A stretch of 64,000 nucleotides of DNA from Pirellulales bacterium (lineage in GTDB: Bacteria > Planctomycetota > Planctomycetia > Pirellulales > UBA1268). Positions 15,974-41,654 of the stretch are shown piece after piece; positions within the stretch are counted from its first letter, which is position 1; each line of letters starts with the position of its first letter. Position numbers and translations under genes: made by a program. The notes beneath the pieces are model-generated. The model was given only the letters and a program-made list of their open reading frames with translations. It did not search any database and was not told the origin of the DNA. Where the stretch lies: NCBI GenBank assembly GCA_044369655.1, contig JBILWX010000004.1, forward strand, positions 7,448 through 71,447. The letters run 5' to 3'.

Positions 15974-16034
15974 CGACTTGCTTGTGCGGCATGGTGCCGC
16001 CGAACCGGTGACCCACACGTGGATCACGGCCGGA

Positions 16035-21741: not shown

Positions 21742-21821
21742 TTCGTGCGGCTCATTCCCGGTATCCTGTTCTTGAGAGAACCTTGGTCCCGATGATGGTC
21801 TCACAGATGACGGTCTCACAG

Positions 21822-22862
21822 ATGCAACGCATGATCCGCACGTGTACCGCCATCCTCTCGACGCTGGCCGTCGTGCTCCCGGTCGTGCCAGTGGCGGCGG
21901 CTCCGACGGAAGAGAAGGTCGAGCTCGTCGTCTCCAAGGGCCTCGACTGGCTGGTCCGCAGGCAGTCGAGGCGGGGCAGTTGGGTGGCGAATGAAAACCG
22001 CTACCCGACGGCGATGACGGCGCTGGCGGGCACGGCGCTTTTGATGGAGGGCTCGACCACCACGCAGGGCAAGTATGCCGAGTCGATCCGACAGGCCGTC
22101 GACTACCTCGTGAGCCGCTCCCGGCCCAACGGCTTGATCGGTGATCCGAAGAACGACGATCGCTACACCTACGGCCACGGCTTCTCGATGCTCTTCCTGT
22201 CCCAGGTGCTCGGCGAGGAGGAAGACGAGCGCCGCCGCGAGGAGCTCGTGCGCGTGCTCGACAAGGCGGTGGAGTTTTCCGGTCGCGCCCAGACGTCGGA
22301 CGGCGGCTGGGGCTACGTGAGCGCAAAAGACGGCAACAATTTTGACGAAGGTTCGACCACGATCACGCAGGTGCAGGGATTGCGTGGCTGTCGCAACGCG
22401 GGCATCACGGTGCCACGGGAGATCATCGACAAGGCGATCGCCTACATTCACAAGTGCACGATGCCCGATGGCGGCGTGCAGTACAGCTCCAAGGGCGGCG
22501 GCGGCCGTCCGGCCATCTCCGCGGCGGCCATCGCCTGCCTGTTCAACGCCGGGGAATACGATGACAACCACGTGCCGCGGATGCTCGACTACGCGGAGAA
22601 GCATCTCGGCAACATCGCCAACAACGGCTTCGGCCACTGGCACTATGCCCACTTCTATTACGCGCAGGTGATGTATCGCGAGGGGGGCAAGAAGTGGTCG
22701 GCGTACAGGAAGCAGATCGAGGAACGGCTCGTGTCGGAGGCGCAAAACGACCGCGACGGGCTCTCCTGGCCGCAGGGTTATATCGGTCCTGTTTACACGA
22801 CGGCCACGAACCTCACCATTCTGCAGCTTGACCGGGGCACGCTCCCGATCTACCAACGCTGA
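21822..22862 (+). CDS. secreted prenyltransferase/squalene-cyclase-repeat (alpha/alpha-toroid) protein
   Basis: Signal peptide MQRMIRTCTAILSTLAVVLPVVPVAAA. Repeats are of the QW type: WLVRRQSRRGSW, RAQTSDGGWGYV and MPDGGVQYS. Alternative starts at 21783 (TTG) or 21792 (ATG). Confidence 0.7.
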   Translation: MQRMIRTCTAILSTLAVVLPVVPVAAAPTEEKVELVVSKGLDWLVRRQSRRGSWVANENRYPTAMTALAGTALLMEGSTTTQGKYAESIRQAVDYLVSRSRPNGLIGDPKNDDRYTYGHGFSMLFLSQVLGEEEDERRREELVRVLDKAVEFSGRAQTSDGGWGYVSAKDGNNFDEGSTTITQVQGLRGCRNAGITVPREIIDKAIAYIHKCTMPDGGVQYSSKGGGGRPAISAAAIACLFNAGEYDDNHVPRMLDYAEKHLGNIANNGFGHWHYAHFYYAQVMYREGGKKWSAYRKQIEERLVSEAQNDRDGLSWPQGYIGPVYTTATNLTILQLDRGTLPIYQR

Positions 22863-22934
22863 CACGCTTTTCCTTTCCGACCGCAGACGTATCATCCCGC
22901 AGGCATGCCCCGCCGTTTTCGCCCGGAGATAACC

Positions 22935-23981
22935 ATGACGCAGACGTCCCTCGACCCAACCGCCATCGACCGCCTGCACGAGGCGCACGATCGCATCCTT
23001 GCGCAGCTCTCGCGGGTGATCGTCGGGCAGAGTCAGGTGATCGAGGAACTGTTGATCTGCCTGTTCAGCCGCGGCCATTGCCTGCTGGAGGGCGTGCCGG
23101 GCCTTGCCAAGACGCTGCTGGTCAGCACGCTGGCCAAGAGTCTCGACCTCTCCTTCAGCCGGATCCAATTCACCCCCGACCTGATGCCTGCCGACATCAT
23201 CGGCACCGACGTGCTCGAGGAGGACAAGGCGACGGGGTCACGGCAACTGCGGTTTCTCGAAGGGCCGCTGTTCGCCAACGTGGTGCTGGCCGACGAGATC
23301 AATCGCACGCCGCCGAAGACGCAGGCGGCGCTGCTCGAAGCGATGCAGGAGCGGCAGGTCAGCGTCGGGCGGGTGCGGCACCGGCTGGTCGATCCATTCT
23401 TCGTGCTGGCCACGCAGAATCCGATCGAACAGGAGGGCACCTATCCGTTGCCCGAGGCCCAGCAGGACCGGTTCATGTTCAAGGTGTTCGTCCGCTACCC
23501 GACGTTCCAGGAGGAATTCGAGATTGCCCGGCGGACCACGGGCCTGCCGGCGGAAGATGCGCAGCCCGTCCTGTCGGCGGCCGACATCCTCGGCCTGCAG
23601 CAGGCCGTCCGTGGTGTGCCGGTGAGCGACCATCTCGTGCGGTATGCGCTGGCGATCGTCCGGCAGACCCGGGCGGGAGAGAAGGGCACGCCCGACTTCG
23701 TGAGTGACCAGCTCTCCTGGGGTGCCGGACCGCGGGCCGTGCAGTTCCTGATCATCGGCGCCAAGGCCCGGGCAATCCTGCAGGGACGCAGCCACGTGGC
23801 GGTCGAAGACATCCAGGCGCTCGCCAGCCCCGTGTTGCGGCATCGGATCGTCGTCGGCTTCGCCGCCGAGAGCGAGGGCATCACGCCCGACGCGATCATC
23901 CAACGCATCATCGAAACGACTCCGGCCAGAGAGGACGAGCTGACCCGTGACGCCCGGTTCCAGACGATATTTGCATCCTGA
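22935..23981 (+). CDS. moxR: MoxR-family AAA+ ATPase
   Basis: [33 protein letters not shown] (Walker A), [24 protein letters not shown] (Walker B/sensor) and [32 protein letters not shown] lies before the ATG at 22935. Confidence 0.9.
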
Positions 23982-24846
23982 GGCGATCGCCCGCATCGCC
24001 CGGCTCGAGCTGCGCGCCCGAGCCGTCGTCGAGGGGGTGCTGGCCGGTCTTCACAAGAGCCCCTACAAGGGGCAGTCGGTGGAGTTTCTCCAGCACCGCG
24101 AGTACGTCCGGGGCGACGACCTGCGCCGCGTCGACTGGAAAGTGTGGGGGCGTCAGGACCGGCTCTACGTCAAGGAATTCGAAGAAGAGACGAACCTGCG
24201 GGTGACGTTGCTGGTGGACGGATCGGCCAGCATGAACTACGCGTCGGGACCGCTCGGCAAATACGATTATGCCGCCACGCTCGCCGCCAGCCTCGCCTGG
24301 CTGGCGCTCTCGCATGGCGATGCCGTTGGCTGCTGCGTGTTCGACGACAAGGTCAGGGCGACCGTGCCGCCGCGGACGAAACGTTCGCATCTGGCGAGCG
24401 TGGTGGAGGTGCTCGAGACGCCACGGTCGGGTCGCCCCACCGCCTTCCTGCCGGTGCTCAGGGCCCTCGCCGAAACGTTGCCCCGGCGGGGCCTCGTGAT
24501 CGTGATGTCGGATCTGCTCGGCGACCGCGACGGCGTGTTTCAGGGGCTGCAGTTGTTGCGGAAACGCGGACACGACTTGGTGCTGCTCCACGTGATGGAC
24601 GACGACGAACTCGATTTCCCCTTCGAGGGCCCGACTCGTTTCGAGGGACTGGAATTGCCCGACTCCCTCGCGTGCAATCCACGGAGCCTCCGGGCCGGCT
24701 ACCTGGCGGCCGTGGAGGCATTTCTCACCGACGTCCGCACGCGGGCCGCGGGTGCGCGGTGCGACTATTCGCTGATCCGCACCGGTGAACCGGTCGATGC
24801 GGCGCTCGTGAAGTTTCTCTCCCGCCGCGCCAGCATGGCCGTGTAG
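23947..24846 (+). CDS. DUF58 family protein (VWA-like, MoxR partner)
   Basis: [32 protein letters not shown], then [11 protein letters not shown]. The GTG start overlaps the moxR end. An alternative TTG lies at 23971. Confidence 0.85.
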
Positions 24847-24861
24847 AAGGGAACCCACGCC

Positions 24862-27186
24862 ATGCCGACGTTCGATTTCCTGCCGCTGCTCTGGTGGGGG
24901 CTGCCCTTGGCGGCGGCCCCGATCATCATCCATCTGATCAATCTCTTGCGGCATCGCCGGGTGCCGTGGGCGGCCATGGAGTTCCTGCTGGCCAGCCAGA
25001 AGAAGTATCGCACCCGGGTGCTGCTCAAGCAGTTGCTGCTGTTGCTCTTGCGGGTGGCTGCCGTGCTGGGGATCGTGCTGAGCCTGGCGCAGCCCCGCTG
25101 GAAGACCGCGCTTGGCCGGATGCTTGGCGGCGCACGGGCGGCCCATGTCGTGCTGCTCGACGACAGTTATTCGATGGGCGACCTGTCGGCGGACGGCCGC
25201 ATCGGAGATGCCAGTTGCTTCGACCGCGGCCGGCTGGTTGTGGAGCGGATCTGTGCTGAACTGGCCGCCGCCGCGGGGCAGCAGGAATTGGCCATCGGCC
25301 GCTTTTCCGCGTTTGACAGGCAGCAGTCACACGAATCACCGCGTGGCCGGAACGAATCGAGCGGGGAACGGCGGCCCGCTGCAGAACCGAGTCCGTCTTC
25401 GGAGGCATTCGACATCCGCCTGCAGACCGTGACGCCACGACTGGTGCAGGAGGTTCGTGACGAACTGGCCGACCAAACTCCCTCCGCGGCGGCCGCCGGA
25501 CCGCGGGCGGCGGTGGCCGCAGCGGCCGCTCTGCTCGGCGGCGGCACGGGCGCCGCCAACGTCATCTGGCTGGTCAGCGACTTTCGCGCCAAGGACTGGA
25601 AGGCTGACGACGAAACGACCGGCCTGTTGCGGCAACTCTCCGACGCCGGCTGCGAACTGCGGCTGGTCGACTGTGCCGACGACGCGGGGGATGGAAGACA
25701 GCCCGGCAATCTGACCGTGGAGCGGCTGGAGATCGCCGGAGGCGTGCCCGCCACCGGCGTGCTCGTGCCTCTCGAAGTGGCGGTCCGCAACGACTCCGAC
25801 CGGCCGGTCCGTGACGTGGCCGTCGACCTGCGCGAGGACGGCCTCGGGCGGCCGGGTGTGCGGATCGCCGAGATCCCGGCCGGCGGGGTGGGCACGCAGC
25901 GGTTCGACGCCCGCTTTACCAAAGCCGGGACACACCTGCTCGAAGCGAATCTTGCCGCCGACGCGGTGGCGGCGGACAACCGGCGCGCGTTGGCGATCGA
26001 CGTAGTCGACCGGGTGGACGTGCTGCTCATCGACGGCGATCCCACGGGCGGAACCCGTGCCGGCGACGCCTTCTACGTGGCCACCGCACTCGCCCCCGGG
26101 GCGGGCGCGCCCACGGGATTGCGGCCCCGCATCGAGCCGCCGCGGAGCCTGGCCACGCTCGACCTGACGCCGTTCGCCTGCATCTGGCTCCTCGACGTCG
26201 AGCGGCTCGACACGCCCGAGGTCGCGGCGCTCGAGGCCTTTGCCCGGGCCGGCGGGGGCGTCGTGTTCTTCACCGGTCCGCGGACGAAGGCCGACGTCAG
26301 CAACCGCACGCTCTACCGCGGCGGCGAGGGGCTCTTTCCGGTGCCGCTGGCCGGACCGGTCGACCTGCTGGCCGATGGCGGTGCCGCCGCCGCCCCCGAC
26401 GTGGTCGTCGAGGAACACCCGGTCGTCGCCGTGCTCTCAGGCCAGCGCAATCCGTTGCTCGACGCCGTGCGGATCGAGCGTTCGATGGCGGTGGAACGCG
26501 GCTTCGAGCCCGTGGCCACCAGCGGCCTTCGCCGGCTGCTCTCGCTCCGCACCGGCGGGCCGCTCGTCGTCGAACGGCCGTACGGCGACGGCATGGTCGT
26601 GGCGGTGCTGACGACGGCCTCGCCGACCTGGAACAATTGGGCCCGCGGCAATCCCAGTTGGGTGGTCGTGATGCTGGAGTTGGAGAGCCATCTGGCCCGC
26701 AGCCGGCGCCGGGCGGAATCGCTCGAGGTGGGCGATCCCGTCGTGGTGCGGCTCGATCCCGGCGTCGACGAGATCGAGGTCGACGTGGCCGTCCCCCCCG
26801 ACGGCACTCTGGTGCACCAGACGGCGGTGGCGTCGTCGTCGGGAATGCTGGAAGCCACGCTTCGTGACACGGCTGCCGCGGGCGGCTACACGGCCCGCTG
26901 GCGGCGGCTTGACGGTACCGAACGTGAACGCATCTTCGCCGTGAACGTGAAAGCCGACGAGGGCCAAATGGAGCGGATCGGGCGCGCACGGCTCGACCGT
27001 GCGCTCGCCGGCATAGCCTTCAAGTACGACCGTGCCGAATCGCTTCAGCCCGACACCACGACGCTGGCCGGCGTGCCCCTGATGAAGCCGCTCCTGCACC
27101 TGCTCGCGGCGGTGCTGATCATCGAACAACTGGTGGCGTTTTCAGCCAGCTACCATGCTGCGGTTCGGGGAAAATCCGCCGCCTGA
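24862..27186 (+). CDS. BatA-N (aerotolerance regulator N-terminal double-TM) domain protein with VWA-like region
   Basis: N-terminus MPTFDFLPLLWWGLPLAAAPIIIHLINLLRHRRVPWAAMEFL, VLLDDSYSMGD, and a C-terminal TM LLHLLAAVLIIEQLVAF. Confidence 0.8.
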   Translation: MPTFDFLPLLWWGLPLAAAPIIIHLINLLRHRRVPWAAMEFLLASQKKYRTRVLLKQLLLLLLRVAAVLGIVLSLAQPRWKTALGRMLGGARAAHVVLLDDSYSMGDLSADGRIGDASCFDRGRLVVERICAELAAAAGQQELAIGRFSAFDRQQSHESPRGRNESSGERRPAAEPSPSSEAFDIRLQTVTPRLVQEVRDELADQTPSAAAAGPRAAVAAAAALLGGGTGAANVIWLVSDFRAKDWKADDETTGLLRQLSDAGCELRLVDCADDAGDGRQPGNLTVERLEIAGGVPATGVLVPLEVAVRNDSDRPVRDVAVDLREDGLGRPGVRIAEIPAGGVGTQRFDARFTKAGTHLLEANLAADAVAADNRRALAIDVVDRVDVLLIDGDPTGGTRAGDAFYVATALAPGAGAPTGLRPRIEPPRSLATLDLTPFACIWLLDVERLDTPEVAALEAFARAGGGVVFFTGPRTKADVSNRTLYRGGEGLFPVPLAGPVDLLADGGAAAAPDVVVEEHPVVAVLSGQRNPLLDAVRIERSMAVERGFEPVATSGLRRLLSLRTGGPLVVERPYGDGMVVAVLTTASPTWNNWARGNPSWVVVMLELESHLARSRRRAESLEVGDPVVVRLDPGVDEIEVDVAVPPDGTLVHQTAVASSSGMLEATLRDTAAAGGYTARWRRLDGTERERIFAVNVKADEGQMERIGRARLDRALAGIAFKYDRAESLQPDTTTLAGVPLMKPLLHLLAAVLIIEQLVAFSASYHAAVRGKSAA

Positions 27187-27206
27187 CCAGTCCTCACCCA
27201 TCCCTC

Positions 27207-29768
27207 ATGCCAGCACTCACTCCCGCACCGTTGCCGCCGCTGCCGTGGCCGCTGTTGCCTTCGGCAGCAGCCTCGCCGTGGTGCCTGCTCGCGTCGTCAG
27301 AGCGGGTGCAGCACCGCATCACCAGCGGGCTGATCGACGGGTTCTCGCAGTGGTGGCAGATGCCGGCGCTTGTGCTGGCGTTCGCGGCGATCGCTGCCTT
27401 CGTGCTCTGGATGTACCGTCGCGACGCAGCCGAATTGCCGCGTGGAGTGGGGATCGCGCTCGCGGCCCTGCGACTGGGGGCGGTGGCGGCGGTCGCGGCC
27501 GCCTACCTCGATTTCGAACGCACGGCGGAGCATGAGATCGTCTTTCCGTCGCGGGTGGCCGTGCTCGTCGATTCCAGCGCCAGCATGACATTGCGAGACG
27601 AACCCGCCGGCGATCACGAGGCCGCGTCCGCAGATGACCAGCAGGCGGGCACGCGGTCGACACGCGCGGTCGACGTGCTCCGCGAGGGCGGCCTGCTCGC
27701 GGCGCTCGCCCCGCGGCACGAGGTGTCGGTGTGGCGGTTCGATGCCGACGCCGAGCCCTTGGCGATCCTGCCGACGGCGGCTACGGCCACCCCGGACGAG
27801 CCTGCCGGCGAATCCCCGGCGGTGGCCACCACGCCGGCCTCGCCACCGCCGGCAGAGGGCTGGCCAGAATTGCTCACCGCACGCGGCTACGAGACCCGGC
27901 TGGGGGAGGCGCTCGCCCGGGTGCTCGACCAGGAACCGGCCGGCGCGCTGGCCGGCGTGATCGTACTGACCGACGGCGCCTCGAACGCCGGCATCGATCC
28001 TGCGGCGGCCGTGGCGGCGCTTGCCAAGGCCGGCGTTCCCGTGCATGCGCTGGGCATCGGGTCCGACCGGCTGCCGACCAACGTGCGCGTCGCCGACGTG
28101 CTGGTACCGGCCCGCGTGTTTCCGGGCGATCGCTTCGCCGTCACCGCCTACCTGCAGGCGCAGGGGCTGGCGGGGCAGACGGTCCGCGTCGAGCTGGCCG
28201 AACTCGCCACCGACTCGAGCGGTGGCGATCCGCAGGCCACCGCCGCGGCGGGCCGCGTGATCGACACCGCGGAGGTCATGCTCGGAGCGGGGGGCGAACT
28301 CGTCGCCGTGCGGTTCGACGTTCCGGGGCTGGAGGCGCCGGGACGCCGCGATCTGGCCGTCCGCGTGATCCCTCCCGCCGTCGACCGCACGCCCGCCGAC
28401 GACCGCCAAGTGGCCGAAGTGGAGGTGGTCGATCGGGTGACGCAGGTGCTGCTCATGGCTGGCGGCCCGAGTCGCGAATACCAGTTCATGCGAAACGTTC
28501 TCGAACGCGACAAGAGCGTCGCCGTGGATGTCGTGCTGGGGACCGCCGGCAAGGGTGGATCCCAGGATGCCCGCCGGATTCTGCCGGCCTTTCCGGCGAC
28601 GGCCGAGGAATTGGCGGAGTATGACGTCGTCGTCGCCTTTGACTATGACTGGCGGCTGCTTGATGCCGCGGCGCAGGCCCGCCTCGAACGCTGGGTGTCG
28701 CGAGAGTCGGGCGGCCTGGTGCTGGTGGCCGGCTCCATTTTCATGGACGCGTGGATCGCCGATTCCCAGACCGCGGTGATTCGCAACCTCCATCCCGTGG
28801 AGTTGCGGCGGGCCGGCCGCTTGACAGGCGACGATACCGCGGCACTCGAGACGCCGATGCCGCTCGTCTTCTCACGCGACGGGCTCGACGCCGAGTTTCT
28901 CTGGCTCGCCTCGAGCCGCATCGCCAGCCAGACCGTCTGGAGCGAGTTCGCGGGCGTGTTTTCCTGTTTCGACTCGACAGGTTCCAAGCCGGGTGCCACG
29001 GTCTACGCGCGGGCCGCCCGCCCCGGCGCGGCAGGATCACCGGAATCCAATCCCATCTACTTTGCCGGCCAGTTCTACGGCTCCGGCAACGTCTTCTTCA
29101 TGGGAAGTGGCGAGATGTGGCGGCTGCGAGCACTTGACGACAGCCTGCACGAGCGGTTTGCCACGCAACTGGTTCGCCATGTGTCGCAGGGACGGCTGCT
29201 GCGCGGATCGCGGCGGGCCCGACTGCTCGTCGACCGGGATCGGTTTGCCGTGGGGTCCAACGTGGTGGTGAGACTGGTCGTGCCCGAAGGGGAGACGGCC
29301 GTGCCTGCGGACTGTCGGGTGGTGGGGCCCGATGGCACGGTGTTGCGGGTGCCACTCGTGGCCGAACGGGACCGGAGCGGCGTGCTGCAAGGCACGTTCG
29401 TGGCCGCCCGCGATGGTTCATGGCGGATCGACGTGGATCTGCCCGGCGGCAGCGGCGAGAAGGTGTCACGCCGCATCCAGGCGCGGCTGCCGGACCGTGA
29501 ACTGGAGCGGCCGCGGCTGGATCGTGGCGTGCTCGAACAGATCGCCGCGCTCTCCGGTGGCACCGCCCGTTTTCTCGGGACGGATCCCTGGACGGGGGAC
29601 GATTCACGGCGGCTCGCCGGTGGCATCCAGGATCGCTCGCGGCGCGAATACGAAACCGGCACGCCGGACGGGGCATTCAAGCGACGACTCAACGGCATCC
29701 TGCTGGCGCTTGCCACAGGACTCCTGTGCAGTGAATGGATTCTCCGACGGCTCGTCAAGCTCGCCTGA
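27207..29768 (+). CDS. membrane-anchored VWA domain protein (BatB-like)
   Basis: Two N-terminal TM segments. MIDAS motif VAVLVDSSASMTL, then VIVLTDGASNAG. C-terminal TM ILLALATGLLCSEWIL. Alternative start at ATG 27360. Confidence 0.75.
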   Translation: MPALTPAPLPPLPWPLLPSAAASPWCLLASSERVQHRITSGLIDGFSQWWQMPALVLAFAAIAAFVLWMYRRDAAELPRGVGIALAALRLGAVAAVAAAYLDFERTAEHEIVFPSRVAVLVDSSASMTLRDEPAGDHEAASADDQQAGTRSTRAVDVLREGGLLAALAPRHEVSVWRFDADAEPLAILPTAATATPDEPAGESPAVATTPASPPPAEGWPELLTARGYETRLGEALARVLDQEPAGALAGVIVLTDGASNAGIDPAAAVAALAKAGVPVHALGIGSDRLPTNVRVADVLVPARVFPGDRFAVTAYLQAQGLAGQTVRVELAELATDSSGGDPQATAAAGRVIDTAEVMLGAGGELVAVRFDVPGLEAPGRRDLAVRVIPPAVDRTPADDRQVAEVEVVDRVTQVLLMAGGPSREYQFMRNVLERDKSVAVDVVLGTAGKGGSQDARRILPAFPATAEELAEYDVVVAFDYDWRLLDAAAQARLERWVSRESGGLVLVAGSIFMDAWIADSQTAVIRNLHPVELRRAGRLTGDDTAALETPMPLVFSRDGLDAEFLWLASSRIASQTVWSEFAGVFSCFDSTGSKPGATVYARAARPGAAGSPESNPIYFAGQFYGSGNVFFMGSGEMWRLRALDDSLHERFATQLVRHVSQGRLLRGSRRARLLVDRDRFAVGSNVVVRLVVPEGETAVPADCRVVGPDGTVLRVPLVAERDRSGVLQGTFVAARDGSWRIDVDLPGGSGEKVSRRIQARLPDRELERPRLDRGVLEQIAALSGGTARFLGTDPWTGDDSRRLAGGIQDRSRREYETGTPDGAFKRRLNGILLALATGLLCSEWILRRLVKLA

Positions 29769-29834
29769 AGGGCAGTCCCGATGTGCAGTTTCCGCCATGT
29801 CATCCCGTTGTTCCGCACCACCTGAGGCCACCCC

Positions 29835-33838: not shown

Positions 33839-33856
33839 GGCCGGCAGCGGCTCGAA

Positions 33857-33892
33857 CAGCAGCTCTGGCAACAGCTCTGGCAACAGCTCTGG
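33857..33892 (+). repeat. intergenic 12-bp tandem repeat (CAGCAGCTCTGG, then CAACAGCTCTGG x2)
   Basis: Read directly from the sequence. It lies in the 180-nt gap between CDS 32111-33838 and 34019-35146. Confidence 0.85.
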
Positions 33893-34018
33893 GAGCGGCT
33901 GTCATAGCTCCTTCAGCCCTTTTTTCGCTCGGTCGGCAGCGTGCGGATATGATGGAGGGATATGATCCACGTCGTTCGTATCGCCGGCACGTCGACAGCC
34001 TTTGGAGGCCAGATTCGC

Positions 34019-35146
34019 ATGAAGTCGAGCCTGATTCCGCTGGCAGTGGTGGCCCTGCTGGTCGCCTGCGGTCAGGGCGTGATGGCCGCGCCGCTGCGAG
34101 AGCAGACGAACGTTGCCGGAGGGGATCAGGACCGGCAGCCGTCCGATTTGGACCGGCCGCCATCCTGGTCGATTCCTTCCCGCGCCGACCTGCGCCGCCG
34201 GATGATCGACTGGCTCGATAGAGTTGCTGCGTCCGGCACGTCGGCGGAGGCCGCCATCAGCTCGGCGCGGGAAGATTGGCCCGAGCAAGAGCCGGCCGAG
34301 TCCGCGGCTGATCTGCTCGATCACGTGATGGACTCCTTCTCGCGGGTCGATCCCCGCTGCGCCGCGCTGCAGCGCGGCGTCGTCGCGGAACGGGGGGCGG
34401 CCGGAGCGGCCCCGGTCGACGTGGGCTGGCTGACGGACACCTCCCTCGCCGCGTTCCAGCGGGATGCCGTCCGGTTGTGGCTGGGGCGGGAACGGGTCCG
34501 TCGTGACCGTTTCGACGAGGGGCTCGCCCTGCTGGCCGATCTCGACCCCGCCACGGCGGTCGATCCCGCCGCACTCCTTTTCCACCGCGCCGCCTGTCAG
34601 CACTGGCTGCTCGAGTCGGATCTCGCCGTCGAGACGCTCGACCGATTGCTGGAACGTTCCGGCGAGATTCCGGTGCGATACGAGCGGGTGGCGCGGCTGT
34701 TGCGCGCCGATATCGCGGCGCTCGAGGACGAATCGCTGGATCACATCGCGAGACGGATGCGCGACATCACCCGTCGCCTCGATCTCGGCCGTGCCGGCCC
34801 GAAGACGTTGGCGGTGCAGGATGGCGTGATCGAATCGCTCGACAAGATGATCAAGGCGATCGAGCAACAACAACAGCAGCAACAGAGCCAGTCGGCGAGC
34901 GGCGGCGCCGGCGGCGGCGGCCGCGGTGGCAACGGCACGCCGATGGACGACAGCCGGATCGCGGGTGGCAAGGGGCCGGGCGAGGTCACGAAGCGTGACA
35001 TTGGCGAGTCTGACGGTTGGGGCAAACTGCCGCCTCACAAACGCGAGGAGGCGCTGCAGCAGATCGGCCGGGAGTTTCCGGCCCACTACCGTGAGGCGAT
35101 CGAACAGTATTTCAAACGGCTGGCCTCCGGCGAGGAGAAACGGTAG
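34019..35146 (+). CDS. hypothetical secreted protein (poly-Gln/Gly linker)
   Basis: Signal peptide MKSSLIPLAVVALLVACGQGVMA. EQQQQQQQSQSASGGAGGGGRGG linker. Tail is GWGKLPPHKREEALQQIGREFPAHYREAIEQYFKRLA. Confidence 0.6.
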   Translation: MKSSLIPLAVVALLVACGQGVMAAPLREQTNVAGGDQDRQPSDLDRPPSWSIPSRADLRRRMIDWLDRVAASGTSAEAAISSAREDWPEQEPAESAADLLDHVMDSFSRVDPRCAALQRGVVAERGAAGAAPVDVGWLTDTSLAAFQRDAVRLWLGRERVRRDRFDEGLALLADLDPATAVDPAALLFHRAACQHWLLESDLAVETLDRLLERSGEIPVRYERVARLLRADIAALEDESLDHIARRMRDITRRLDLGRAGPKTLAVQDGVIESLDKMIKAIEQQQQQQQSQSASGGAGGGGRGGNGTPMDDSRIAGGKGPGEVTKRDIGESDGWGKLPPHKREEALQQIGREFPAHYREAIEQYFKRLASGEEKR

Positions 35147-36438
35147 TGCGGATCACGCTGTGTGTCACGCTGTCGATCGCTGCCATGCTTCCGGCTCGCG
35201 CCGGTGAAACCCAGCCGCCCGCTCCCATGCTCGTGGAAGTGGAACAGGGGGACGGCAGTCGCATGACGGGCCGGCTCGAGCAGATCGACGCGGCGGCGGT
35301 GCGCCTGGTCGACGACGCCGCTGGTGGCGGAACCCCGGTGTCGCTTGCGGGCGACCGAGTGCGGGCCGTGCAGCGGACCAATCGGGTGCAGGATGGCCCG
35401 CAGAAACTCGTGCTCACGCTCCTCGACGGGTCGTCCCTCGCGGGCGACGACTTTGCCTGGGATGGCGAACAGGCGGCGGTGCTCGTGCGGCCGGAGGGGC
35501 GGGTCGAACTGCCCATCGGCCGCGTCCGGTCGATCGCGTGGCGGCGCGAGGCCGCGACAGGCGACGCACCACCGGCTTGGCTGGGCACCCTGCCGGAGGG
35601 CACGGAGAGCGACCTGGTCGTGGTCGGAACCGACGAGAACCCCGAGTTCGTGGAGTGTGCCATCACGGGCGTGTCGGCCGAGAACGTGACGGTGGTGCTC
35701 GACGAGGAAACGATTCCTGTCAAGCGATCCAAGGTGATCGGCTTGCAGTGGCTGCGAGGTGAGCCGACCGCCGCCGAAGGCAAGACGGGGCGAACGCTCG
35801 TGGCCGTGACCGGGGGCGGGCTGCGGGCCAGCCGCGTGGACTGGTCGCCTGCCGGTCTCGTCGTCGATGGCGAGATCCGTCTGCCGGCCGGCATGTTGCT
35901 CGGCGTCGACTATGCCTCGGGCAGAACCGTGGGGCTCGCCAGTCTCAAGGCGGACACGGTGGTGGTGGAGCCGTGGTTTGGCGGGCTGGTCCGCACCGTC
36001 GGCGGCGCCGGCGGGCTGGCGACGTTTTTTGCACCGCGGTCGCTCGATCCCAAACCAGAAGCGGAGGCCCCGGCAGCGGGCGGCCGGGCGACGACCGCCG
36101 CCACGACCACGCCGGGCATCATCATGCGGCCACGGACCGTGGCTGTCTGGCGCTTGCCCGCCGACAGTCGGCGGTTTCGCACGGTCGTCGCGGCAGCGGC
36201 CGGACCGCAGGCCGCCGACCCCGTGGTGGTCGCCGTGGCGGTCGATGACCGCGAACTGTTCCGACGACAGCTCGGCGGCGCGGAGGGCTCTGCCGGCGGT
36301 CCGGAGCCGGATGGCGAGGGCATCCCGATCGATGTCGACCTGACGTCGGCACGGCGTCTGACCGTGACGGTTGATTTTGTGCCGGGCAACGGCGTGGGAG
36401 GAGCAGTACGGTTCACGAGCCCGGTTATCGAACGCTAG
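35146..36438 (+). CDS. hypothetical secreted protein, possible NPCBM-like C-terminal beta-sandwich
   Basis: The GTG start overlaps the previous stop (TAGTG). Signal-like N-terminus MRITLCVTLSIAAMLPARA. C-terminus has VVVAVAVDDRELF...IDVDLTSARRLTVTVDF...GGAVRFTSPVI. The domain call is tentative. Confidence 0.55.
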   Translation: MRITLCVTLSIAAMLPARAGETQPPAPMLVEVEQGDGSRMTGRLEQIDAAAVRLVDDAAGGGTPVSLAGDRVRAVQRTNRVQDGPQKLVLTLLDGSSLAGDDFAWDGEQAAVLVRPEGRVELPIGRVRSIAWRREAATGDAPPAWLGTLPEGTESDLVVVGTDENPEFVECAITGVSAENVTVVLDEETIPVKRSKVIGLQWLRGEPTAAEGKTGRTLVAVTGGGLRASRVDWSPAGLVVDGEIRLPAGMLLGVDYASGRTVGLASLKADTVVVEPWFGGLVRTVGGAGGLATFFAPRSLDPKPEAEAPAAGGRATTAATTTPGIIMRPRTVAVWRLPADSRRFRTVVAAAAGPQAADPVVVAVAVDDRELFRRQLGGAEGSAGGPEPDGEGIPIDVDLTSARRLTVTVDFVPGNGVGGAVRFTSPVIER

Positions 36439-36457
36439 AGGGCAGAGGGCAGCTTTC

Positions 36458-38425
36458 ATGAACGGCATGAACCAGCCACCGACTTCCCGACGTATCGACT
36501 CAGCGTCGCGGCCACGTCGGCTGTCCGCTGCCGCAGCCTGCTGGGTGTGCCTGATAGCAGTTGCCACCTCGACGGCCATGGCGGTCGAGGTCGCGCCGGC
36601 GGTGCTCGATGCGCAGCAGCGGCGGATCGACGTCATGCAGCGGGCCGCGGCCACGGCGGTGGCGATCTTTGCAGGAGAGGCCGGAGGCGGTTCGGGCGTG
36701 CTCATCAGTCCCGACGGGTACGCCCTCACCAATTTCCACGTCGTGCAACCGGCCGGCGTGGCCATGAAGTGCGGACTGGCCGACGGTCGGCTCTATGACG
36801 CGGTGCTCGTCGGCCTCGATCCGACCGGGGACGTCGCGCTTGTCAAGCTCTTGGGACGCGACGATTTTCCCTCCGCCGAACTGGCCGACAGCGACGAGGT
36901 CGAGGTCGGTGACTTCTGCTTCGCTGCCGGCAACCCCTTTCTGCTCGCGACCGATTTCCAGCCGTCGATCAGCGCCGGCATCGTGTCGGGCACGAGACGC
37001 TACCAGTTTCCGGCCGGCACGATCCTCGAATACGCCGACTGCCTGCAGGTCGATGCGGCGATCAACCCGGGCAACTCCGGGGGCGGTTTGTTCGATGCGC
37101 GGGGCAGGATCATTGGCGTCAACGGCAGGGCATCGTTCGAGAAACGTGGTCGCGTCAACGTCGGCGTGGGCTACGCGATTTCAGCCAACCAACTGCGGAA
37201 CTTTCTCGGCCTGCTCAAGGGGGGGCGGCTCGTCGACCACGCCACGCTCGGCGCCACGGTCGCCACCAGCGCCGATGGTCGCGTGGTCGTGTCGGACATC
37301 CTCGAATCGTCGGACGCCTGGAAACGTGGGCTGCGGTATGACGACGAAATCGTGTCGCTGGCGGGACGCAGTGTTCGCACCGTCAACGCCTTCAAGAACG
37401 TCCTGGGCACGCTGCCTGCCGGCTGGCGGGTGCCGCTGGTGTATCGCCGCGGCGGCCGCCGCGAGGAGATTCTGGTCCGGCTGGCGGGGGTGCACACGGC
37501 CGCGGAACTGGCGAACATCGTCGCCGGAAAGCCGCAGAAGCCGACGGGCCAGCTGCCGGAGGAGGGGCCCGCCCCGGGCGACGGTGGCGGCCCCGACAAA
37601 GGCGATCGCCCCGCTCGGCCGCCGGAAACGCCCGCAGACGCACCACTGCCCGCTGCCGTCCGGCCGCTGTACGAGGCCAGACGAGGCTTCACGAACCACC
37701 ACTTCAACATCGTGGAACGTGACCGCGTGGCCCGGTTGATCGCCGCCGACGGCCGCGCTGCGTCGTTGCAGGGCCGTTGGATCATGACGGGCCGGTTGGC
37801 GACGGGCGAAGCATTTCGCATCGAACTCTCCGACAGCGAGGGGGTGATCGATCTTCCGACCGGAACGACCCGGGTCGATGCCACGGGCGAACTGGATGCG
37901 AATCCGAACCCTCCCGGCAGTGGCGGCATGCTGGCGGCACTGTTGCTGTGGAGACGGCTGGTGCGGGAGGGACCGGAGTCTCTGGGCCGCACGACCTACT
38001 GGGGTACGGTGCCGCTCGACCCACGCTCGCTCGGTGAGGCGGGTGGGCCACGACTCGTGGACATGCTCGAAACATCGGTCGCAGGCGTCGAGGCTCGCTT
38101 TGCCGTGGAGGCCGACGGGAGCGTGGCGGGTGTCGAACTGTGGACCGCCCCCGATGCCGACCCCTGCGAGGTCCGCTTTCGCGCAGCGCCGGCGGATCGG
38201 CCCGAGACTCGGCGCCAAACTCGGCCTCAGGATCTGCCCCGGAATGCACCGCAGGGCATGCCCGCCTCGATCGAAGTGCGGCATGGCAACGACGTCTTCG
38301 GGGTGTTCAACGTGGAGGGTGTGGTGTTGGATCGGGACGGAGATGACGCAGGCGGCGACGCTGCCAAGGCGCGGGCAGTGGCTCCCGAAACGGAGGCCGG
38401 GACATTGCCAGGAGGCGCTCCATGA
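36458..38425 (+). CDS. HtrA/DegP-like trypsin-fold serine protease with PDZ domain (catalytic triad intact)
   Basis: His in LTNFHVV, Asp in GDVALVKL, and Ser in NPGNSGGGLFD (Ser codon TCC at 37076-37078). A PDZ-like VVSDILESSDAWKRGLRYDDEIVSLAG follows, then an extra C-terminal region of about 270 aa. Confidence 0.85.
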   Translation: MNGMNQPPTSRRIDSASRPRRLSAAAACWVCLIAVATSTAMAVEVAPAVLDAQQRRIDVMQRAAATAVAIFAGEAGGGSGVLISPDGYALTNFHVVQPAGVAMKCGLADGRLYDAVLVGLDPTGDVALVKLLGRDDFPSAELADSDEVEVGDFCFAAGNPFLLATDFQPSISAGIVSGTRRYQFPAGTILEYADCLQVDAAINPGNSGGGLFDARGRIIGVNGRASFEKRGRVNVGVGYAISANQLRNFLGLLKGGRLVDHATLGATVATSADGRVVVSDILESSDAWKRGLRYDDEIVSLAGRSVRTVNAFKNVLGTLPAGWRVPLVYRRGGRREEILVRLAGVHTAAELANIVAGKPQKPTGQLPEEGPAPGDGGGPDKGDRPARPPETPADAPLPAAVRPLYEARRGFTNHHFNIVERDRVARLIAADGRAASLQGRWIMTGRLATGEAFRIELSDSEGVIDLPTGTTRVDATGELDANPNPPGSGGMLAALLLWRRLVREGPESLGRTTYWGTVPLDPRSLGEAGGPRLVDMLETSVAGVEARFAVEADGSVAGVELWTAPDADPCEVRFRAAPADRPETRRQTRPQDLPRNAPQGMPASIEVRHGNDVFGVFNVEGVVLDRDGDDAGGDAAKARAVAPETEAGTLPGGAP

Positions 38426-39456
38426 TCCGACATGCTGTTGCCATGGTGGCGATCGGCTTCGCCGTCAGCGGCTGGTTCACCGGCGGTGCAGGGCAGGTGG
38501 AAGCCGCAACGCCGCAGGAAACGATCGCGGGAGCGGCGCGGAAGATGGTCAAGATCCACGGCGCCGGCGGGGTGCGCGGTCTCGAGGCCTACCAGACCGG
38601 CATGCTCGTGTCTCCGGCAGGCCATATCGTCACCGTGATGAGCACCGTCCTCGATGCCGACGAACTCGATTGTGTGCTCGATGACGGTCGGCGGTATCGC
38701 GCCACGATGGTCGGTGCGGATCCGCGTCGCGCATTGGCCGTGCTCTCGATCGAGGGGGAGGAGTTGCCGGCGTTCACGCTCGCCGCCGGTGAGCCCGTGC
38801 CGGTCGGAACGAGGATCTTCGCCCTCTCGAATCTGTTCGGCGTCGCGGTGGGAGATGAGCGGGTCAGCGCCCAGCATGGTGTGGTGTCCGCGATGGTGCC
38901 GCTCGAGGCCCGCAGGGGCAGCTACGAGGTGCCCTATCGCGGCGACGTCTACATCCTCGACTGCACGACCAACAATCCAGGGGCGCCCGGAGGGGCGGTC
39001 GTCGACTGGCGGGGCCGCCTCGTCGGCATGCTCGGCAAGGAACTGCGGGCGTCCGAGAGCGGCATCTGGCTCAACTACGCCATTCCCGTGGAGGCGCTGG
39101 CCGCCGGCTACGCCGAGATCATCGCGGGTAAGGCGACTGCCGACGCCAGCCCGCAGCCGCCGGGTGCGGGCTTCGATCCGGCGGCGCTCGGCATGGTGCT
39201 GGTGCCCGATCTGCTCGATCGCACACCTCCCTTCATCGAGACGGTCGCCGCCGACTCGCCGGCGGCGCGGGCCGGCCTGCGGCCCGACGATCTCGTGATT
39301 GCCGTGGGGGGGAGGTCGGTGGCCTCGCGAGCGGCCGTGCAGCAGGCGCTCTCGGCACTCGCCGCGGGGGATTTGGTGCGGCTTTCGATCGTCCGCGATG
39401 GGGCGATCATGGAATGCGAACTCGGGCCGCGGCCCGAGGCGGGGAGGAAGCGATGA
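38422..39456 (+). CDS. HtrA-like pseudoprotease with PDZ domain (all three triad residues substituted)
   Basis: Same fold pattern, but VTVMSTV replaces the His box, RALAVLSI the Asp box, and NPGAPGGAVVD the Ser box (CCC Pro at 38986-38988). PDZ-like FIETVAADSPAARAGLRPDDLVIAVGG. ATGA overlap with the upstream gene. Confidence 0.75.
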   Translation: MIRHAVAMVAIGFAVSGWFTGGAGQVEAATPQETIAGAARKMVKIHGAGGVRGLEAYQTGMLVSPAGHIVTVMSTVLDADELDCVLDDGRRYRATMVGADPRRALAVLSIEGEELPAFTLAAGEPVPVGTRIFALSNLFGVAVGDERVSAQHGVVSAMVPLEARRGSYEVPYRGDVYILDCTTNNPGAPGGAVVDWRGRLVGMLGKELRASESGIWLNYAIPVEALAAGYAEIIAGKATADASPQPPGAGFDPAALGMVLVPDLLDRTPPFIETVAADSPAARAGLRPDDLVIAVGGRSVASRAAVQQALSALAAGDLVRLSIVRDGAIMECELGPRPEAGRKR

Positions 39457-41654
39457 CGCACCGGTTTATGATGGCGGCCGTGTGCCTCGCGATCGTGCAT
39501 GCCGTCGCACGCTTCGCGGCCGCCACCGATGACGTGCCGTTCGAGGAGGAGGCTGCGATCCGCGCGGCAGTGGAGCGGGTGGCGCCGTCTGTGGTGCGCA
39601 TCGAAGCGGCTGGTGTCTCGGCGGCGGCGCTCGCCGCGTCTGCGGAGGCCAGTCCTGCCAGCGGTCCCTCGACCGGCCTCGTCGTGGAGAAGGGGGGGTG
39701 GGTGCTCGCCACTTCGTTTGCCGTGCCACTGGATGCCGATGAGGCAATCGTCGTGCTGCCGTCTCCGGGCGTGGCCGACAAGGCAGTCGATTCCGCTCCC
39801 GATGATCCCGCCCTGAACGCTGCCGCAGGGCCGGATCGGGGGGCCGAAACCGGGCGGGCGCCAGGTGGCCGGCGGCGGGTGGCACGCGTGGTGGGCCGCG
39901 ATCTGGCCAGGTCGCTCGTGCTGTTGCGGATCGACGAGCCCGGCCTGCCGGCGGTGGCCGAATGGGCTCCGCGGGCGGAACTGGCGGTCGGCCAGTGGAC
40001 GATTGCCGTGGGCCGTGCCTGGCACCCCGACATTCCCAGCGTTGCCGTCGGCATCCTCTCGGCCACGAACCGTTCATGGGGCCGTTCCGTGCAGACCGAT
40101 GCCTCGATTTCGCCGGCGAACTACGGCGGACCGCTCATCGACATCAAGGGCCGTGTGATCGGCATCCTGGCGCCGTTGCCGGCGGACACAGCCGGGATGA
40201 ACCTGGGCACGGAACTCTACGACTCGGGCATCGGCTTTGCGGTGCCCCTGGAAGACATGCTCAGCGTGCTGCCGCGGCTCAAGAACGGAGAGACGCTGGC
40301 TCCCGGCGTGCTCGGCATCGGGTACCGGTCGCGTGATCCGTTCACGGGGGAGGCGCGGATAGCGACCTGCCGGCCAGGCTCCCCGGCGGCAAATGCCGGG
40401 CTGCGGCCGGGCGACCTGATCGTCGCCGCCGATGGCCGGCCGGTGACGCGGATCGCGGAACTCCGACATGTTCTCGCTCCGCACTATGCCGGCGACACCG
40501 TGAGCCTGACCATCGAACGCGGGGCCGGCTCGGCCGAACAGACTGCCGACGCGCCGGCCATCGAGGACCAACGGGAACGGCCGGCCCCCCCGGCCCGCAT
40601 CGAGGTGCGCGTCGAACTCGCCAGGTCGCTGCCACCATGGCGCAAGCCGATGCTGGGCATCGTGCCGGCACGTTCGGCTGGCCGGGATGCGCAACCGGCC
40701 GCCGTGCAGGTGGCATGGGTCTGGGCCGGGAGTCCGGCCGCGAAGGCCGGCATCGTGGCCGGTGACACGATCACTGCGGTTGTGCCGCCGGTGCCTGCCG
40801 GAGAGACGACCAACGAGGCCGACGCCGTGCCCGTCGAATCAGCCGCCGCACTCGCCGGCATCGTCGCCGGCACGGAGGTGGGCGGGCGGTTGGGACTCGT
40901 CGTTTCCCGCGCCGGCGCGAGGCAGACCATTTCGGTCGAGGCTGCCCCGATGCCGGTCGAACTGCCGGCGAATCTGGCGGACCAGCTCCCCGTCATCACC
41001 GGGAAGCAAGCCGCGCCCATGCCCGCGGGCGACGCCGCGACGGTCGAACGCCTGGAAGCCGCGGAAGTGGCCAAGCCGCCGCTGGCCGTGCTTCCGGTCT
41101 TGCCGCCCCGGGAACCGCTGGCAGTGATCATCTACCTCGACGTGCCGCGGGGCACGGTCGAAGAGGGGCAGGCCGCAGTCTGGAAGGCCGCTGCGGCCCG
41201 ACATGGCGTGGCGGTGATCCTGCCCGGCTCGTCCGATCCGCAGCGGTGGGGACGCGAGGATATTGCCGGCATCAAGCGGGCGGTGGCCACACTCGCCGCC
41301 AAGCGAACCATCGATCCAACGCGAATCGCCGTTGCCGGCCGCGGGGCAGGGGGGGCATTTGCGTGGTTGGTGGCCGAAGCGCTCGGTCCCGCCGTGCGGG
41401 GCGTGGCCCTCATCGACGCCACGCTCCCCCGGCAGGCTGCGATCGAGCCCGCCGAGCCCGGCCGATCGCGCTGGGTGTTGCTCGGGAGTGGGGCTGACGC
41501 CGCCGGAGTGGTGCAGTTGTCGCCCCGCGTGGAGGCCGACCGCCGCCGACTGGAGGAGGCCGGCTACCCGACGGCCACGCTGGCGGTAGAGCAGGGGGGC
41601 GGCGTGCCGGCAGCCCTGCTGGCCGCGTGGGTCGAGGCGTTGGGGCTGCTGTGA
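39453..41654 (+). CDS. HtrA-like pseudoprotease with two PDZ domains and a C-terminal esterase-like domain lacking the nucleophile
   Basis: LATSFAV replaces the His box, RSLVLLRI the Asp box, and SPANYGGPLID the Ser box (TAC Tyr at 40122-40124). PDZ-like segments are CRPGSPAANAGLRPGDLIVAADG and VWAGSPAAKAGIVAGDTITAV. The C-terminal IAVAGRGAGGAFAW occupies the place of a G-x-S-x-G elbow. Confidence 0.75.
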   Translation: MTHRFMMAAVCLAIVHAVARFAAATDDVPFEEEAAIRAAVERVAPSVVRIEAAGVSAAALAASAEASPASGPSTGLVVEKGGWVLATSFAVPLDADEAIVVLPSPGVADKAVDSAPDDPALNAAAGPDRGAETGRAPGGRRRVARVVGRDLARSLVLLRIDEPGLPAVAEWAPRAELAVGQWTIAVGRAWHPDIPSVAVGILSATNRSWGRSVQTDASISPANYGGPLIDIKGRVIGILAPLPADTAGMNLGTELYDSGIGFAVPLEDMLSVLPRLKNGETLAPGVLGIGYRSRDPFTGEARIATCRPGSPAANAGLRPGDLIVAADGRPVTRIAELRHVLAPHYAGDTVSLTIERGAGSAEQTADAPAIEDQRERPAPPARIEVRVELARSLPPWRKPMLGIVPARSAGRDAQPAAVQVAWVWAGSPAAKAGIVAGDTITAVVPPVPAGETTNEADAVPVESAAALAGIVAGTEVGGRLGLVVSRAGARQTISVEAAPMPVELPANLADQLPVITGKQAAPMPAGDAATVERLEAAEVAKPPLAVLPVLPPREPLAVIIYLDVPRGTVEEGQAAVWKAAAARHGVAVILPGSSDPQRWGREDIAGIKRAVATLAAKRTIDPTRIAVAGRGAGGAFAWLVAEALGPAVRGVALIDATLPRQAAIEPAEPGRSRWVLLGSGADAAGVVQLSPRVEADRRRLEEAGYPTATLAVEQGGGVPAALLAAWVEALGLL

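Follow-up and report, generated by a model that had tools for sequence, protein, structure and literature searches.

A planctomycete gene block that joins a MoxR/DUF58/BatA/VWA core to three HtrA-type genes in a probable modular envelope system

The 64,000-nucleotide (nt) stretch of a Pirellulales bacterium analyzed here (assembly GCA_044369655.1, contig JBILWX010000004.1, positions 7,448 to 71,447 of the forward strand; referred to below as the window) carries fourteen same-strand genes, labeled A to N, which span 16.7 to 42.4 kb on the plus strand and include a MoxR-type AAA+ ATPase, membrane proteins with VWA domains and three HtrA-like proteins. The question raised by this locus is whether these genes form one system and, if so, of what kind. 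An earlier note on the same DNA had read most of them as one translationally coupled super-operon encoding a single envelope-associated assembly. Of that proposal, the conserved, linked and envelope-directed cluster on a Bat-like core stands, whereas the one coupled operon does not; our verdict is a functionally linked, modular envelope system whose mechanism we infer, and not a strictly coupled operon. More specifically, our judgement inclines, if only modestly, toward a modular envelope system that is specific to planctomycetes and has the widespread MoxR/DUF58/BatA/VWA/DUF4175 core as its basis. The features of the block are the following (MIDAS, metal ion-dependent adhesion site; TM, transmembrane; AF2, AlphaFold2).

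A, 16744..21741, plus strand: secreted or anchored giant of about 1665 residues with predicted BamB/PQQ-like beta-propellers (Pfam PQQ_2, 5.6e-24).
B, 21783..22862, plus strand: predicted periplasmic single alpha/alpha-toroid of the squalene-hopene-cyclase C-domain type (SQHop_cyclase_C, 9e-09).
C, 22905..23981, plus strand: cytoplasmic MoxR-type AAA+ ATPase (AAA_3, 4e-63; AAA_lid_2, 1.9e-17).
D, 23947..24846, plus strand: DUF58 protein, cytoplasmic VWA-like putative adaptor with a MIDAS motif (DUF58, 7.4e-47; VWA_2, 3.7e-06).
E, 24862..27186, plus strand: BatA-type inner-membrane protein (BatA, PF07584, 1e-11; TIGR02226, 4e-15).
F, 27207..29768, plus strand: BatB-like second membrane-anchored VWA/MIDAS protein (VWA, 2.1e-05; weak DUF4350 match).
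G, 29835..32114, plus strand: putative N-terminal part of a split DUF4175-like protein, with three TM helices (AF2 model).
H, 32111..33838, plus strand: secreted acidic coiled-coil protein with a signal peptide, putative middle part of the split DUF4175-like protein.
Tandem -10-like hexamers (GGATATGAT ... GGATATGAT), 33948..33966, plus strand: in the H-I spacer, candidate internal promoter for I-M.
I, 34019..35146, plus strand: predicted lipoprotein (LVAC lipobox) whose helical TPR-like domain is followed by a disordered linker rich in Gln and Gly and by a conserved helical hairpin at the C-terminus.
J, 35146..36438, plus strand: secreted protein with a small beta-barrel (SH3-like) N-terminal part and a predicted C-terminal NPCBM/CBM51-type domain.
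K, 36458..38425, plus strand: HtrA/DegP-type serine protease, membrane-anchored and predicted to be active, which has one PDZ domain and extends by about 300 residues at its C-terminus.
L, 38422..39456, plus strand: secreted HtrA-like putative pseudo-protease with one PDZ domain (Trypsin_2, 5.9e-19; PDZ_6).
M, 39453..41654, plus strand: secreted HtrA-like putative pseudo-protease whose PDZ domains are accompanied by a degenerate C-terminal domain of alpha/beta-hydrolase-like type.
N, 41627..42409, plus strand: RluA-type pseudouridine synthase (PseudoU_synth_2, 1.2e-29).

The domains that had been named by reading the sequence are thus borne out by Pfam, namely the SQHop_cyclase_C toroid, AAA_3/MoxR, DUF58, BatA, VWA, the three Trypsin_2+PDZ proteins and PseudoU_synth_2.

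Gene order carries most of the argument for a linked system. A profile search with G yielded 80 loci in species-level genomes, all of them uncultured Pirellulales or Planctomycetia metagenome-assembled genomes (MAGs), in which the order was tested by tblastn with all fourteen window proteins, each locus being followed as far as its contig reaches. The order A-M is the same in every sufficiently long locus among these 80 Pirellulales-type genomes, with best-segment identities to the window of 26-74% for A, 75-95% for B (the most conserved protein of the block), 77-98% for C, 66-95% for D, 48-88% for E, 50-87% for F, 38-81% for G, 49-87% for H, 46-78% for I, 28-65% for J, 56-87% for K, 59-83% for L and 40-74% for M. 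Three distant loci (L081, L083 and L084), where G is about 30-36% identical, keep the same succession from the propeller giant and the toroid through MoxR, DUF58, BatA, VWA, G, H and I to the NPCBM protein and the three Trypsin_2/PDZ proteins, without RluA after it, and a Pirellulaceae-type genome (L087) has C-L only, with A, B and M missing. It should be noted that several of the MAG records with the cluster (L002, L004, L007, L028, L033, L054 and others) are titled 'Candidatus Kuenenia stuttgartiensis', 'Chitinophagaceae' or 'Chitinophaga' and look mislabelled.

The order extends to a cultured species. For Planctopirus limnophila, a member of a different order, the transposon sequencing (Tn-seq) tables of PMC10632474 give for Plim_1801-1811 a run of annotations that opens with AAA_3, DUF58 and five hypotheticals and ends with 'GH98 putative carbohydrate binding module', peptidase S1/S6, PDZ and PDZ; upstream of MoxR these tables place Hsp90, not A or B, and downstream Plim_1812, an oxidoreductase, with no RluA. 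Matched by annotation and order, Plim_1801-1811 is the same system as C-M in a genetically tractable species. According to a table of the same source, the protein types G, H, I, J, K and M have homologues in 15-30 of 45 Planctomycetes versus 0-2 of 4655 prokaryotic species. The loci, about 85 in all, hence show ten to thirteen genes in constant order across deep divergence within the class Planctomycetia, and synteny, which had been set as the refuting test of a common assembly, holds beyond close relatives, to a G identity of about 30% and, by annotation, to P. limnophila. The G family itself is large, an exhaustive profile search returning 6937 representatives at E<=1e-3 and 1271 at <=1e-30, all unannotated.

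The limits of the block differ at both ends from those given in the earlier note, which overlooked A and listed the RluA overlap among its junctions. A precedes B in syntenic position in 37 loci (median gap 25 nt) and also in L081, whose orthologue of A has additional faint TPR matches, so that in this lineage A (16744-21741) belongs to the block. Upstream of A lie a 370-nt divergent intergenic region and then, on the other strand, a gene (16035-16361) which, from reading its sequence, we take to be an HU/IHF-like DNA-binding protein; since these precede A, the block is considered to start there. A TTG-started open reading frame (16225-21741) overlaps this HU/IHF-like gene, which is divergent from A, and because of the overlap the start of A is placed at 16744 (MQPKLL) and not at the TTG. 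At the other end N follows M in 26 loci, and unrelated genes stand in its place in L081, L083, L084 and L087. As unrelated genes replace RluA in the distant loci and in P. limnophila, N is a co-transcribed passenger in this sub-lineage and lies outside the system. The downstream end of the block is convergent with a photolyase-like gene.

Concerning the junctions, all of those listed before are present in the sequence. The DUF58 start (GTG, 23947) precedes the moxR stop (23981), which gives a C/D overlap of 35 nt; the gaps D/E (24846 to 24862), E/F (27186 to 27207) and F/G (29768 to 29835) measure 15, 20 and 66 nt; ATGA overlaps lie at 32111-32114 (G/H), 38422-38425 (K/L) and 39453-39456 (L/M); I and J share a TAGTG at 35144-35148; J/K is a gap of 19 nt (36438 to 36458); and the start of N, GTG 41627 or 41651, overlaps the stop of M at 41654. 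For these junctions the claim of minimal spacing throughout is correct, but it fails for B/C, with 42 nt (A/B has 41 nt), and above all for H/I, the widest in the block, where the gap is 123 nt if I begins at the ATG at 33962 and 180 nt if it begins with the signal peptide, at 34019. The spacing is itself conserved: median gaps over about 80 related loci are -35 nt for C/D (the 35-nt overlap also being the median over 46 loci), -4 for K/L, 1 for G/H, 4 for J/K, 18 for E/F and 20 for D/E, and given this conservation the tight spacing of the block exceeds chance. GC content is uniform along the window (64-72%), terminator and promoter scans of the window gave no convincing intergenic terminator or consensus sigma-70 promoter, and an Rfam scan of the whole window had no matches.

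The H-I junction deserves closer attention, since a motif that the single-window promoter scan did not show surfaced there through comparison across loci. Of 46 H-I spacers, 38 contain the hexamer TAT[GA]AT, where 0.48 would be expected, and among the other junction spacers only two, both at F-G, contain it; the spacer consensus is cGG[GA]TATGAT, with TATAAT in two loci, and the median position is 57 nt 5' of the start of I. In the window the spacer contains two tandem copies, at 33948 and 33961, the whole 64 kb having only six occurrences, one of which, at 5311 on the minus strand, immediately precedes another gene. We read TAT[GA]AT as a candidate -10 promoter element for I-M. The hexamers have a T6 run shortly before them (about 33917-33922), where RNA folding of the window spacer gives a weak hairpin before the T-run (z = -0.45 and -1.18) and no convincing terminator, while L006 has a strong hairpin before its T-run (z = -5.4). 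Direct repeats, CAGCTCTGGCAA x 2.8 at 33843-33900, are also observed between the stop of H and the T-run with its -10-like hexamers. H and I lie close together in the distant loci, with an overlap or hardly any gap, and hence the putative I-M promoter would be a lineage-specific addition to an ancestrally coupled pair.

The same boundary, together with F|G, can also be opened. A sub-lineage with G 46-48% identical has 1-6 kb of extra DNA at F|G and H|I (4129-10000 and 13828-14922 in L060; 8065-10000 and 13843-16282 in L075), and L071 (1-10000) has no A-F homologue within 10 kb 5' of G. The -10-like element and these insertions or separations imply that modules can be expressed, and perhaps work, apart, and on their account the block is modular, comprising A-F, G-H and I-M. 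One translationally coupled super-operon is therefore too strong a description.

The core C-F displays conserved motifs in all four proteins. The Walker B motif VVLADE of C is conserved in 46 orthologues, the DxSxS of D (residues 91-95) keeps its D, S and S in 100% of 49, the DDSYS of E (residues 100-104) is conserved among orthologues and the DSSAS of F (residues 122-126) in 62 of them. C reaches 211 bits on AAA_3 versus 42 bits (7e-11) on PF20030 bpMoxR. E and F have two N-terminal TM helices, with a basic loop between them, and one C-terminal TM helix, from which positive-inside topology predicts their VWA/MIDAS domains to be periplasmic; the homologue BB0173, whose VWA domain was located in the periplasm by experiment, has the same orientation (PMC5700661). 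Predicted topology shows C and D to be the sole cytoplasmic parts of the system and E, F and G to be inner-membrane proteins with large periplasmic domains, and export signals are predicted on B, H, I, J, K, L and M. This disposes of the idea that the AAA+ chaperone acts on the MIDAS of the membrane proteins: those of E and F lie across the membrane and are ruled out as direct targets of MoxR, which leaves DUF58 as the only cytoplasmic MIDAS. BatD (PF13584) has no match in the window proteins or in 62 G-family, 28 H, 28 I and 28 J orthologues.

G, H and I, formerly listed among the unknown envelope proteins, can be placed, at least tentatively, as one split DUF4175-like protein. In its AF2 model (mean predicted local distance difference test, pLDDT, 89) G, which had been described as a double-TM protein, has three predicted TM helices and a conserved helical loop of 65 residues, which is cytoplasmic and includes invariant acidic residues; three to four beta-sandwich domains lie in the periplasm, and a four-helix bundle forms the C-terminus. 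Foldseek with this model against the PDB found generic tandem Ig/FnIII/macroglobulin folds only and no specific homologue. Four of 62 distant G-family members match PF13779 (DUF4175), the best at 1.2e-8, as does one of 28 H orthologues (2e-4); window G, H and I have no PF13779 or TIGR02302 match in Pfam and NCBIfam, and ten long G-family variants gave no TIGR02302 match in NCBIfam. H carries a signal peptide and is 19% acidic. That it continues G is suggested by natural G-H fusions among metagenomic proteins, P0153 and P0188, which match the H profile at 1e-123 and 1e-132 and dispense with the H signal peptide; P0516 (1341 residues) is likely a third, judged by its length only. Inside H a perfect 12-nt x 9.8 repeat (32794-32910, 100% identity) encodes (ESGK)n, which suggests recent expansion or length variation. 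This repeat region is the least conserved part of H.

The link with I comes from a 1298-residue protein of Gemmatirosa, which adjoins MoxR-DUF58-BatA. Its N-terminus matches the G profile (4e-39), its middle is an H-like, Gly/Gln-rich low-complexity coiled coil, it scores 26.1 bits on DUF4175 versus a cut-off of 27.3, and the 20 residues at its very end, EVPPGYRALVDEYFKALARG, match the motif EFPAHYREAIEQYFKRLASG that is invariant at the C-terminus of I; the match is short, with 7.6 bits, a score that 1 of 2000 shuffles reached. TIGR02302 proteins combine N-terminal TM helices with a long extracytoplasmic Gln/Gly-rich low-complexity region and are encoded beside MoxR-DUF58-BatA; here such a TIGR02302/DUF4175-type architecture and neighborhood are found only when G, H and I are taken together. 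Hence G, H and I look like a split version of a DUF4175-like protein that is one polypeptide elsewhere. The AF2 model of I (pLDDT 75) is TPR-like, with weak Foldseek TPR matches (E >= 0.06), and I appears to have additionally acquired a lipobox and this TPR-like domain.

The remaining proteins give the system its probable output parts. J, a further member of the former unknowns, is predicted to carry a sugar-binding-type domain of the NPCBM/CBM51 kind: 13 of 28 orthologues match NPCBM (PF08305), the best at 1.2e-28, while window J itself has no match, and the J profile retrieves from the PDB 7js4 (1.3e-8) and the CBM51 entries 2vmg and 2vmh. Matches to SH3-like domains are only sporadic among the orthologues. 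The P. limnophila counterpart of J is the one annotated in PMC10632474 as 'GH98 putative carbohydrate binding module'.

As had been proposed, the three following genes encode one HtrA with an intact catalytic triad and two without. K matches Trypsin_2 (7.4e-31), PDZ_2 and degP_htrA_DO (7e-60), and 42 of 42 orthologues keep its triad H94/D125/S207 unchanged. In the window the triad positions read S/A/P in L and A/S/Y in M; among orthologues they are Ser/Glu-or-Ala/Pro-or-Ala in L and Ala/Gly/Tyr in M and intact in none. L has Ser at the catalytic His in 42 of 42 orthologues, with P, A, Q or T at the nucleophile position, and M has Tyr at the nucleophile position in 38 of 38, with its His changed to A, N or G. 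Since the triad is lost in every orthologue, L and M are taken to be pseudo-proteases, and the alignments show a module of one presumably active HtrA and two anciently fixed pseudo-proteases. M matches Trypsin_2 (1.3e-18), PDZ_2 (8e-20) and Abhydrolase_3 (0.0029), and its hydrolase-like tail has no GxSxG elbow.

B scores 35.2 bits on SQHop_cyclase_C versus a cut-off of 26.1, and a PDB search returns squalene-hopene cyclase chains as well as the relatives 7xq4 and 8zg5 at about 1e-9. A role as terpene cyclase was considered and rejected, since no DxDD motif is present in its sequence and the protein is a single secreted domain (359 residues plus signal peptide); B shares the fold only.

Putting these elements together, the following mechanism can be sketched. 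By analogy with RavA-ViaA, CbbQ-CbbO and similar pairs, a MoxR hexamer may grip, through the DUF58 MIDAS, a conserved acidic cytoplasmic loop, the best candidate being ERxHPxFRDSLSTxIEL of G. The energy of ATP hydrolysis would then serve to build or rearrange a scaffold in the periplasm, consisting of the E and F VWA/MIDAS domains and a G-H-I stalk, the latter with beta-sandwich domains, coiled coil and lipid-anchored TPR protein. This scaffold, together with the putatively glycan-binding J, would position and regulate a hetero-oligomer of the HtrA proteins K, L and M, which would process envelope proteins or control their quality, with the beta-propeller giant A and the alpha/alpha toroid B as possible further periplasmic partners in this lineage, and the I-M module may have an additional promoter of its own. 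A bolder version, which we consider unlikely, would make the system a trans-membrane energy-coupling device in which MoxR/DUF58 pull on the G loop and the G-H-I stalk switches K-L-M proteolysis on and off. If true, cytoplasmic ATP hydrolysis would control proteolysis in the ATP-free periplasm, with K as catalytic and L/M as regulatory subunits, and the MoxR/DUF58/BatA/DUF4175 clusters of many phyla would be membrane-spanning mechanical transducers.

Several points weigh against a modular envelope system of this kind. The eleven P. limnophila genes are, eleven out of eleven, non-essential in the laboratory according to the Tn-seq tables (insertion index 0.076-0.106; PMC10632474), and their correspondence with C-M rests on annotation and order and not on sequence. 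A, B and M are not universal, being absent or unlinked in L087 and P. limnophila. A conserved -10-like element precedes I, and insertion or separation occurs at F|G and H|I in L060, L062, L071 and L075. Window G has no Pfam or NCBIfam match, so the DUF4175 link rests on transitive, near-threshold matches, and the match of the I motif is short. Part of these observations would fit two or three adjacent but separate envelope operons, a Bat-like MoxR/VWA/DUF4175 unit (A/C-H) and a protease/quality-control unit (I-M), kept together by selection for co-regulation or by simple inertia. The promoter-like hexamer of the 38 H-I spacers, the T-runs after H with the strong hairpin of L006, the 1-6 kb insertions, the locus L071 lacking A-F 5' of G and the Gemmatirosa core without neighboring HtrA or NPCBM genes all speak for such a division. 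On the other hand, I holds the C-terminal module and G the N-terminal part of what looks like the same DUF4175-like protein, so that the H|I boundary would run through one ancestral protein and not between two systems; moreover, distant relatives have H and I overlapping or with almost no gap, I-M stands beside C-H from Pirellulales to Planctomycetales, and the phyletic counts of types G, H, I, J, K and M resemble one another. Separate operons are on balance rather unlikely.

The other alternatives account for less of the block. That it is a plain planctomycete Bat (aerotolerance) operon, protecting against oxygen or oxidative stress, seems quite improbable: MoxR, DUF58, the BatA N-terminal domain and the second VWA protein do stand in Bat order, and the TPR-like I and SH3-like J bear a loose resemblance to BatC and BatE, but BatD is missing from every protein and orthologue set scanned, and the HtrA triad, NPCBM, toroid and propeller giant would be left without explanation. 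Also, to our knowledge the aerotolerance role of Bat is unsettled in other phyla, which counts against this explanation, as does the likelihood that aerobic freshwater planctomycetes, as the hosts presumably are, have no special need of aerotolerance; in its favor, bat-like genes of Borrelia respond to oxygen (PMC5700661). We find it very improbable that the block is a machine that builds or anchors a glycan layer or a structure on the cell surface (for instance a holdfast, fibres or crateriform structures), in which glycan-binding parts would do the actual work and the proteases would serve as maturases. The predicted NPCBM/CBM51 domain in J, the alpha/alpha toroid of B, a fold common to glycan- and isoprenoid-binding proteins, the restriction of the cluster to Planctomycetes and a nearby polysaccharide pyruvyl transferase (11730-13685, minus strand) point that way, yet the cluster has no glycosyltransferase, flippase, secretin or pilin, and A and B are not universally linked to it. 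Hardly credible, in turn, is a defence or antagonism-resistance cluster like Arc PA4317-23 or the MoxR-vWA-propeller conflict systems. PA4317-23 is protective and has MoxR and a VWA protein (PMC8926400), C does score on bpMoxR and A has beta-propellers; against this, the AAA_3 score is far above that of bpMoxR, composition is uniform, synteny is stable and vertical with no island features, and PADLOC gave no matches on A-J, which leaves the conflict-system explanation weak.

If the block is indeed a modular envelope system, its relevance is threefold. The planctomycete version ties recognisable output parts, i.e. a presumably active HtrA, two pseudo-proteases and a predicted sugar-binding module, to an enigmatic core present in many phyla, and the occurrence of the same cluster in P. 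limnophila, a species with genetics and Tn-seq data, makes concrete hypotheses testable. The DUF4175 split and the natural fusions give a place to three 'hypothetical' families with thousands of unannotated proteins. As a phylum-restricted conserved system, the block is also an entry point to the unusual and poorly understood planctomycete envelope.

Elsewhere in the window, a second AAA+/VWA pair lies on the minus strand, with a Mg_chelatase-like ATPase at 3567-5303 and a VWA_2 protein at 1582-3471, and the TAT[GA]AT at 5311 on the minus strand is directly upstream of this pair (1582-5303). The 5' side of the block is occupied by the polysaccharide pyruvyl transferase gene (11730-13685, minus strand) and a HEAT-repeat protein gene (13627-15930), after which a perfect hairpin is found at about 15945-15975. 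Two ARAGORN predictions, a tRNA-Arg in RluA (41946-42031) and a tRNA-SeC in an ammonium-transporter gene (45146-45239), fall in GC-rich coding sequence and are almost certainly false.

Compared with known systems, the C-F core is of the Bat / RL3499-3502 / bb0170-0176 type, and the extension appears to be undescribed. Our limited literature search found no description of the lipoprotein/TPR-NPCBM-HtrA extension, the DUF4175 split or the A/B additions, which may exist elsewhere, no paper that names Plim_1801-1810 and none that links Planctomycetes with MoxR, DUF58 and BatA; the composition thus stays new to the literature, as first suggested, within the range of that search. With the Bat operon (B. 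fragilis BatI, Borrelia bb0170-bb0176, Leptospira bat) the block shares MoxR AAA_3, DUF58, a BatA-type double-TM protein whose VWA/MIDAS domain is periplasmic, another VWA protein in the membrane and, more tentatively, accessory periplasmic proteins of TPR-like and SH3-like type. It differs in that no BatD is detected, the third membrane protein is DUF4175-like and apparently split into G, H and I, and the NPCBM protein and the HtrA triad with its two pseudo-proteases are added, as are the toroid and the propeller giant in this lineage. In the P. limnophila counterpart, Plim_1801-1811, the eleven-gene order is the same by annotation, with Hsp90 upstream and without RluA; PMC10632474 makes no comment on the cluster.

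A plasmid locus of Gemmatirosa kalamazoonensis (Gemmatimonadota; L089, NZ_CP007129.1 403-15534, unannotated in PLSDB) has MoxR (55% identity) and DUF58 (40%) in common with the block, together with a BatA+VWA_2+GATase1_like protein, a VWA membrane protein and the long DUF4175-like protein with its ...YxxxxxxYFKxLA C-terminus, in which N-terminal TM helices, beta-sandwich domains and Gln/Gly-rich low complexity occur as in G-H-I. In contrast with the block, this protein is one polypeptide, and neither a lipoprotein/TPR part nor NPCBM or HtrA genes follow. The Gemmatirosa locus also has a 1172-residue TPR + Peptidase_MA_2 protein and then three MacB/FtsX-type permeases. Further MoxR-DUF58-BatA-DUF4175 relatives are RL3499-RL3502 of Rhizobium leguminosarum, to which the title of a work cited in PMC5700661 ascribes an envelope-integrity phenotype, and the alphaproteobacterial TIGR02302 proteins, one of which is, with a MoxR, among the CenR targets in Rhodobacter (PMC9275681); AdvA of Acinetobacter is a related protein with an envelope or division role (PMC7481262). 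Such roles among relatives speak for an envelope function of the block. The Arc cluster PA4317-23 of Pseudomonas aeruginosa, with MoxR and a VWA protein, protects against interbacterial antagonism (PMC8926400).

In the MoxR-VWA pairs RavA-ViaA, CbbQ-CbbO, NorQ-NorD and BchI-BchD, a MoxR ring and a MIDAS adaptor grip an acidic residue of the client (PMC3893208, PMC6987120; Tsai 2020, as cited in PMC8926400). Here, in contrast, the would-be clients are membrane proteins, and as their bulk is periplasmic any action of MoxR must pass through the membrane. For the protease module a parallel is found in magnetotactic bacteria, where MamE, an active HtrA protease, is paired with MamO, a degenerate HtrA paralogue. 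Common to both is an active HtrA beside catalytically dead paralogues kept by selection; K scores 6e-34 and 1.2e-14 on the MamE and MamO models, far below their cut-offs, and there is neither orthology nor a magnetosome context, the planctomycete block having instead two putative pseudo-proteases with fixed replacements of their own, His to Ser in L and Ser to Tyr in M.

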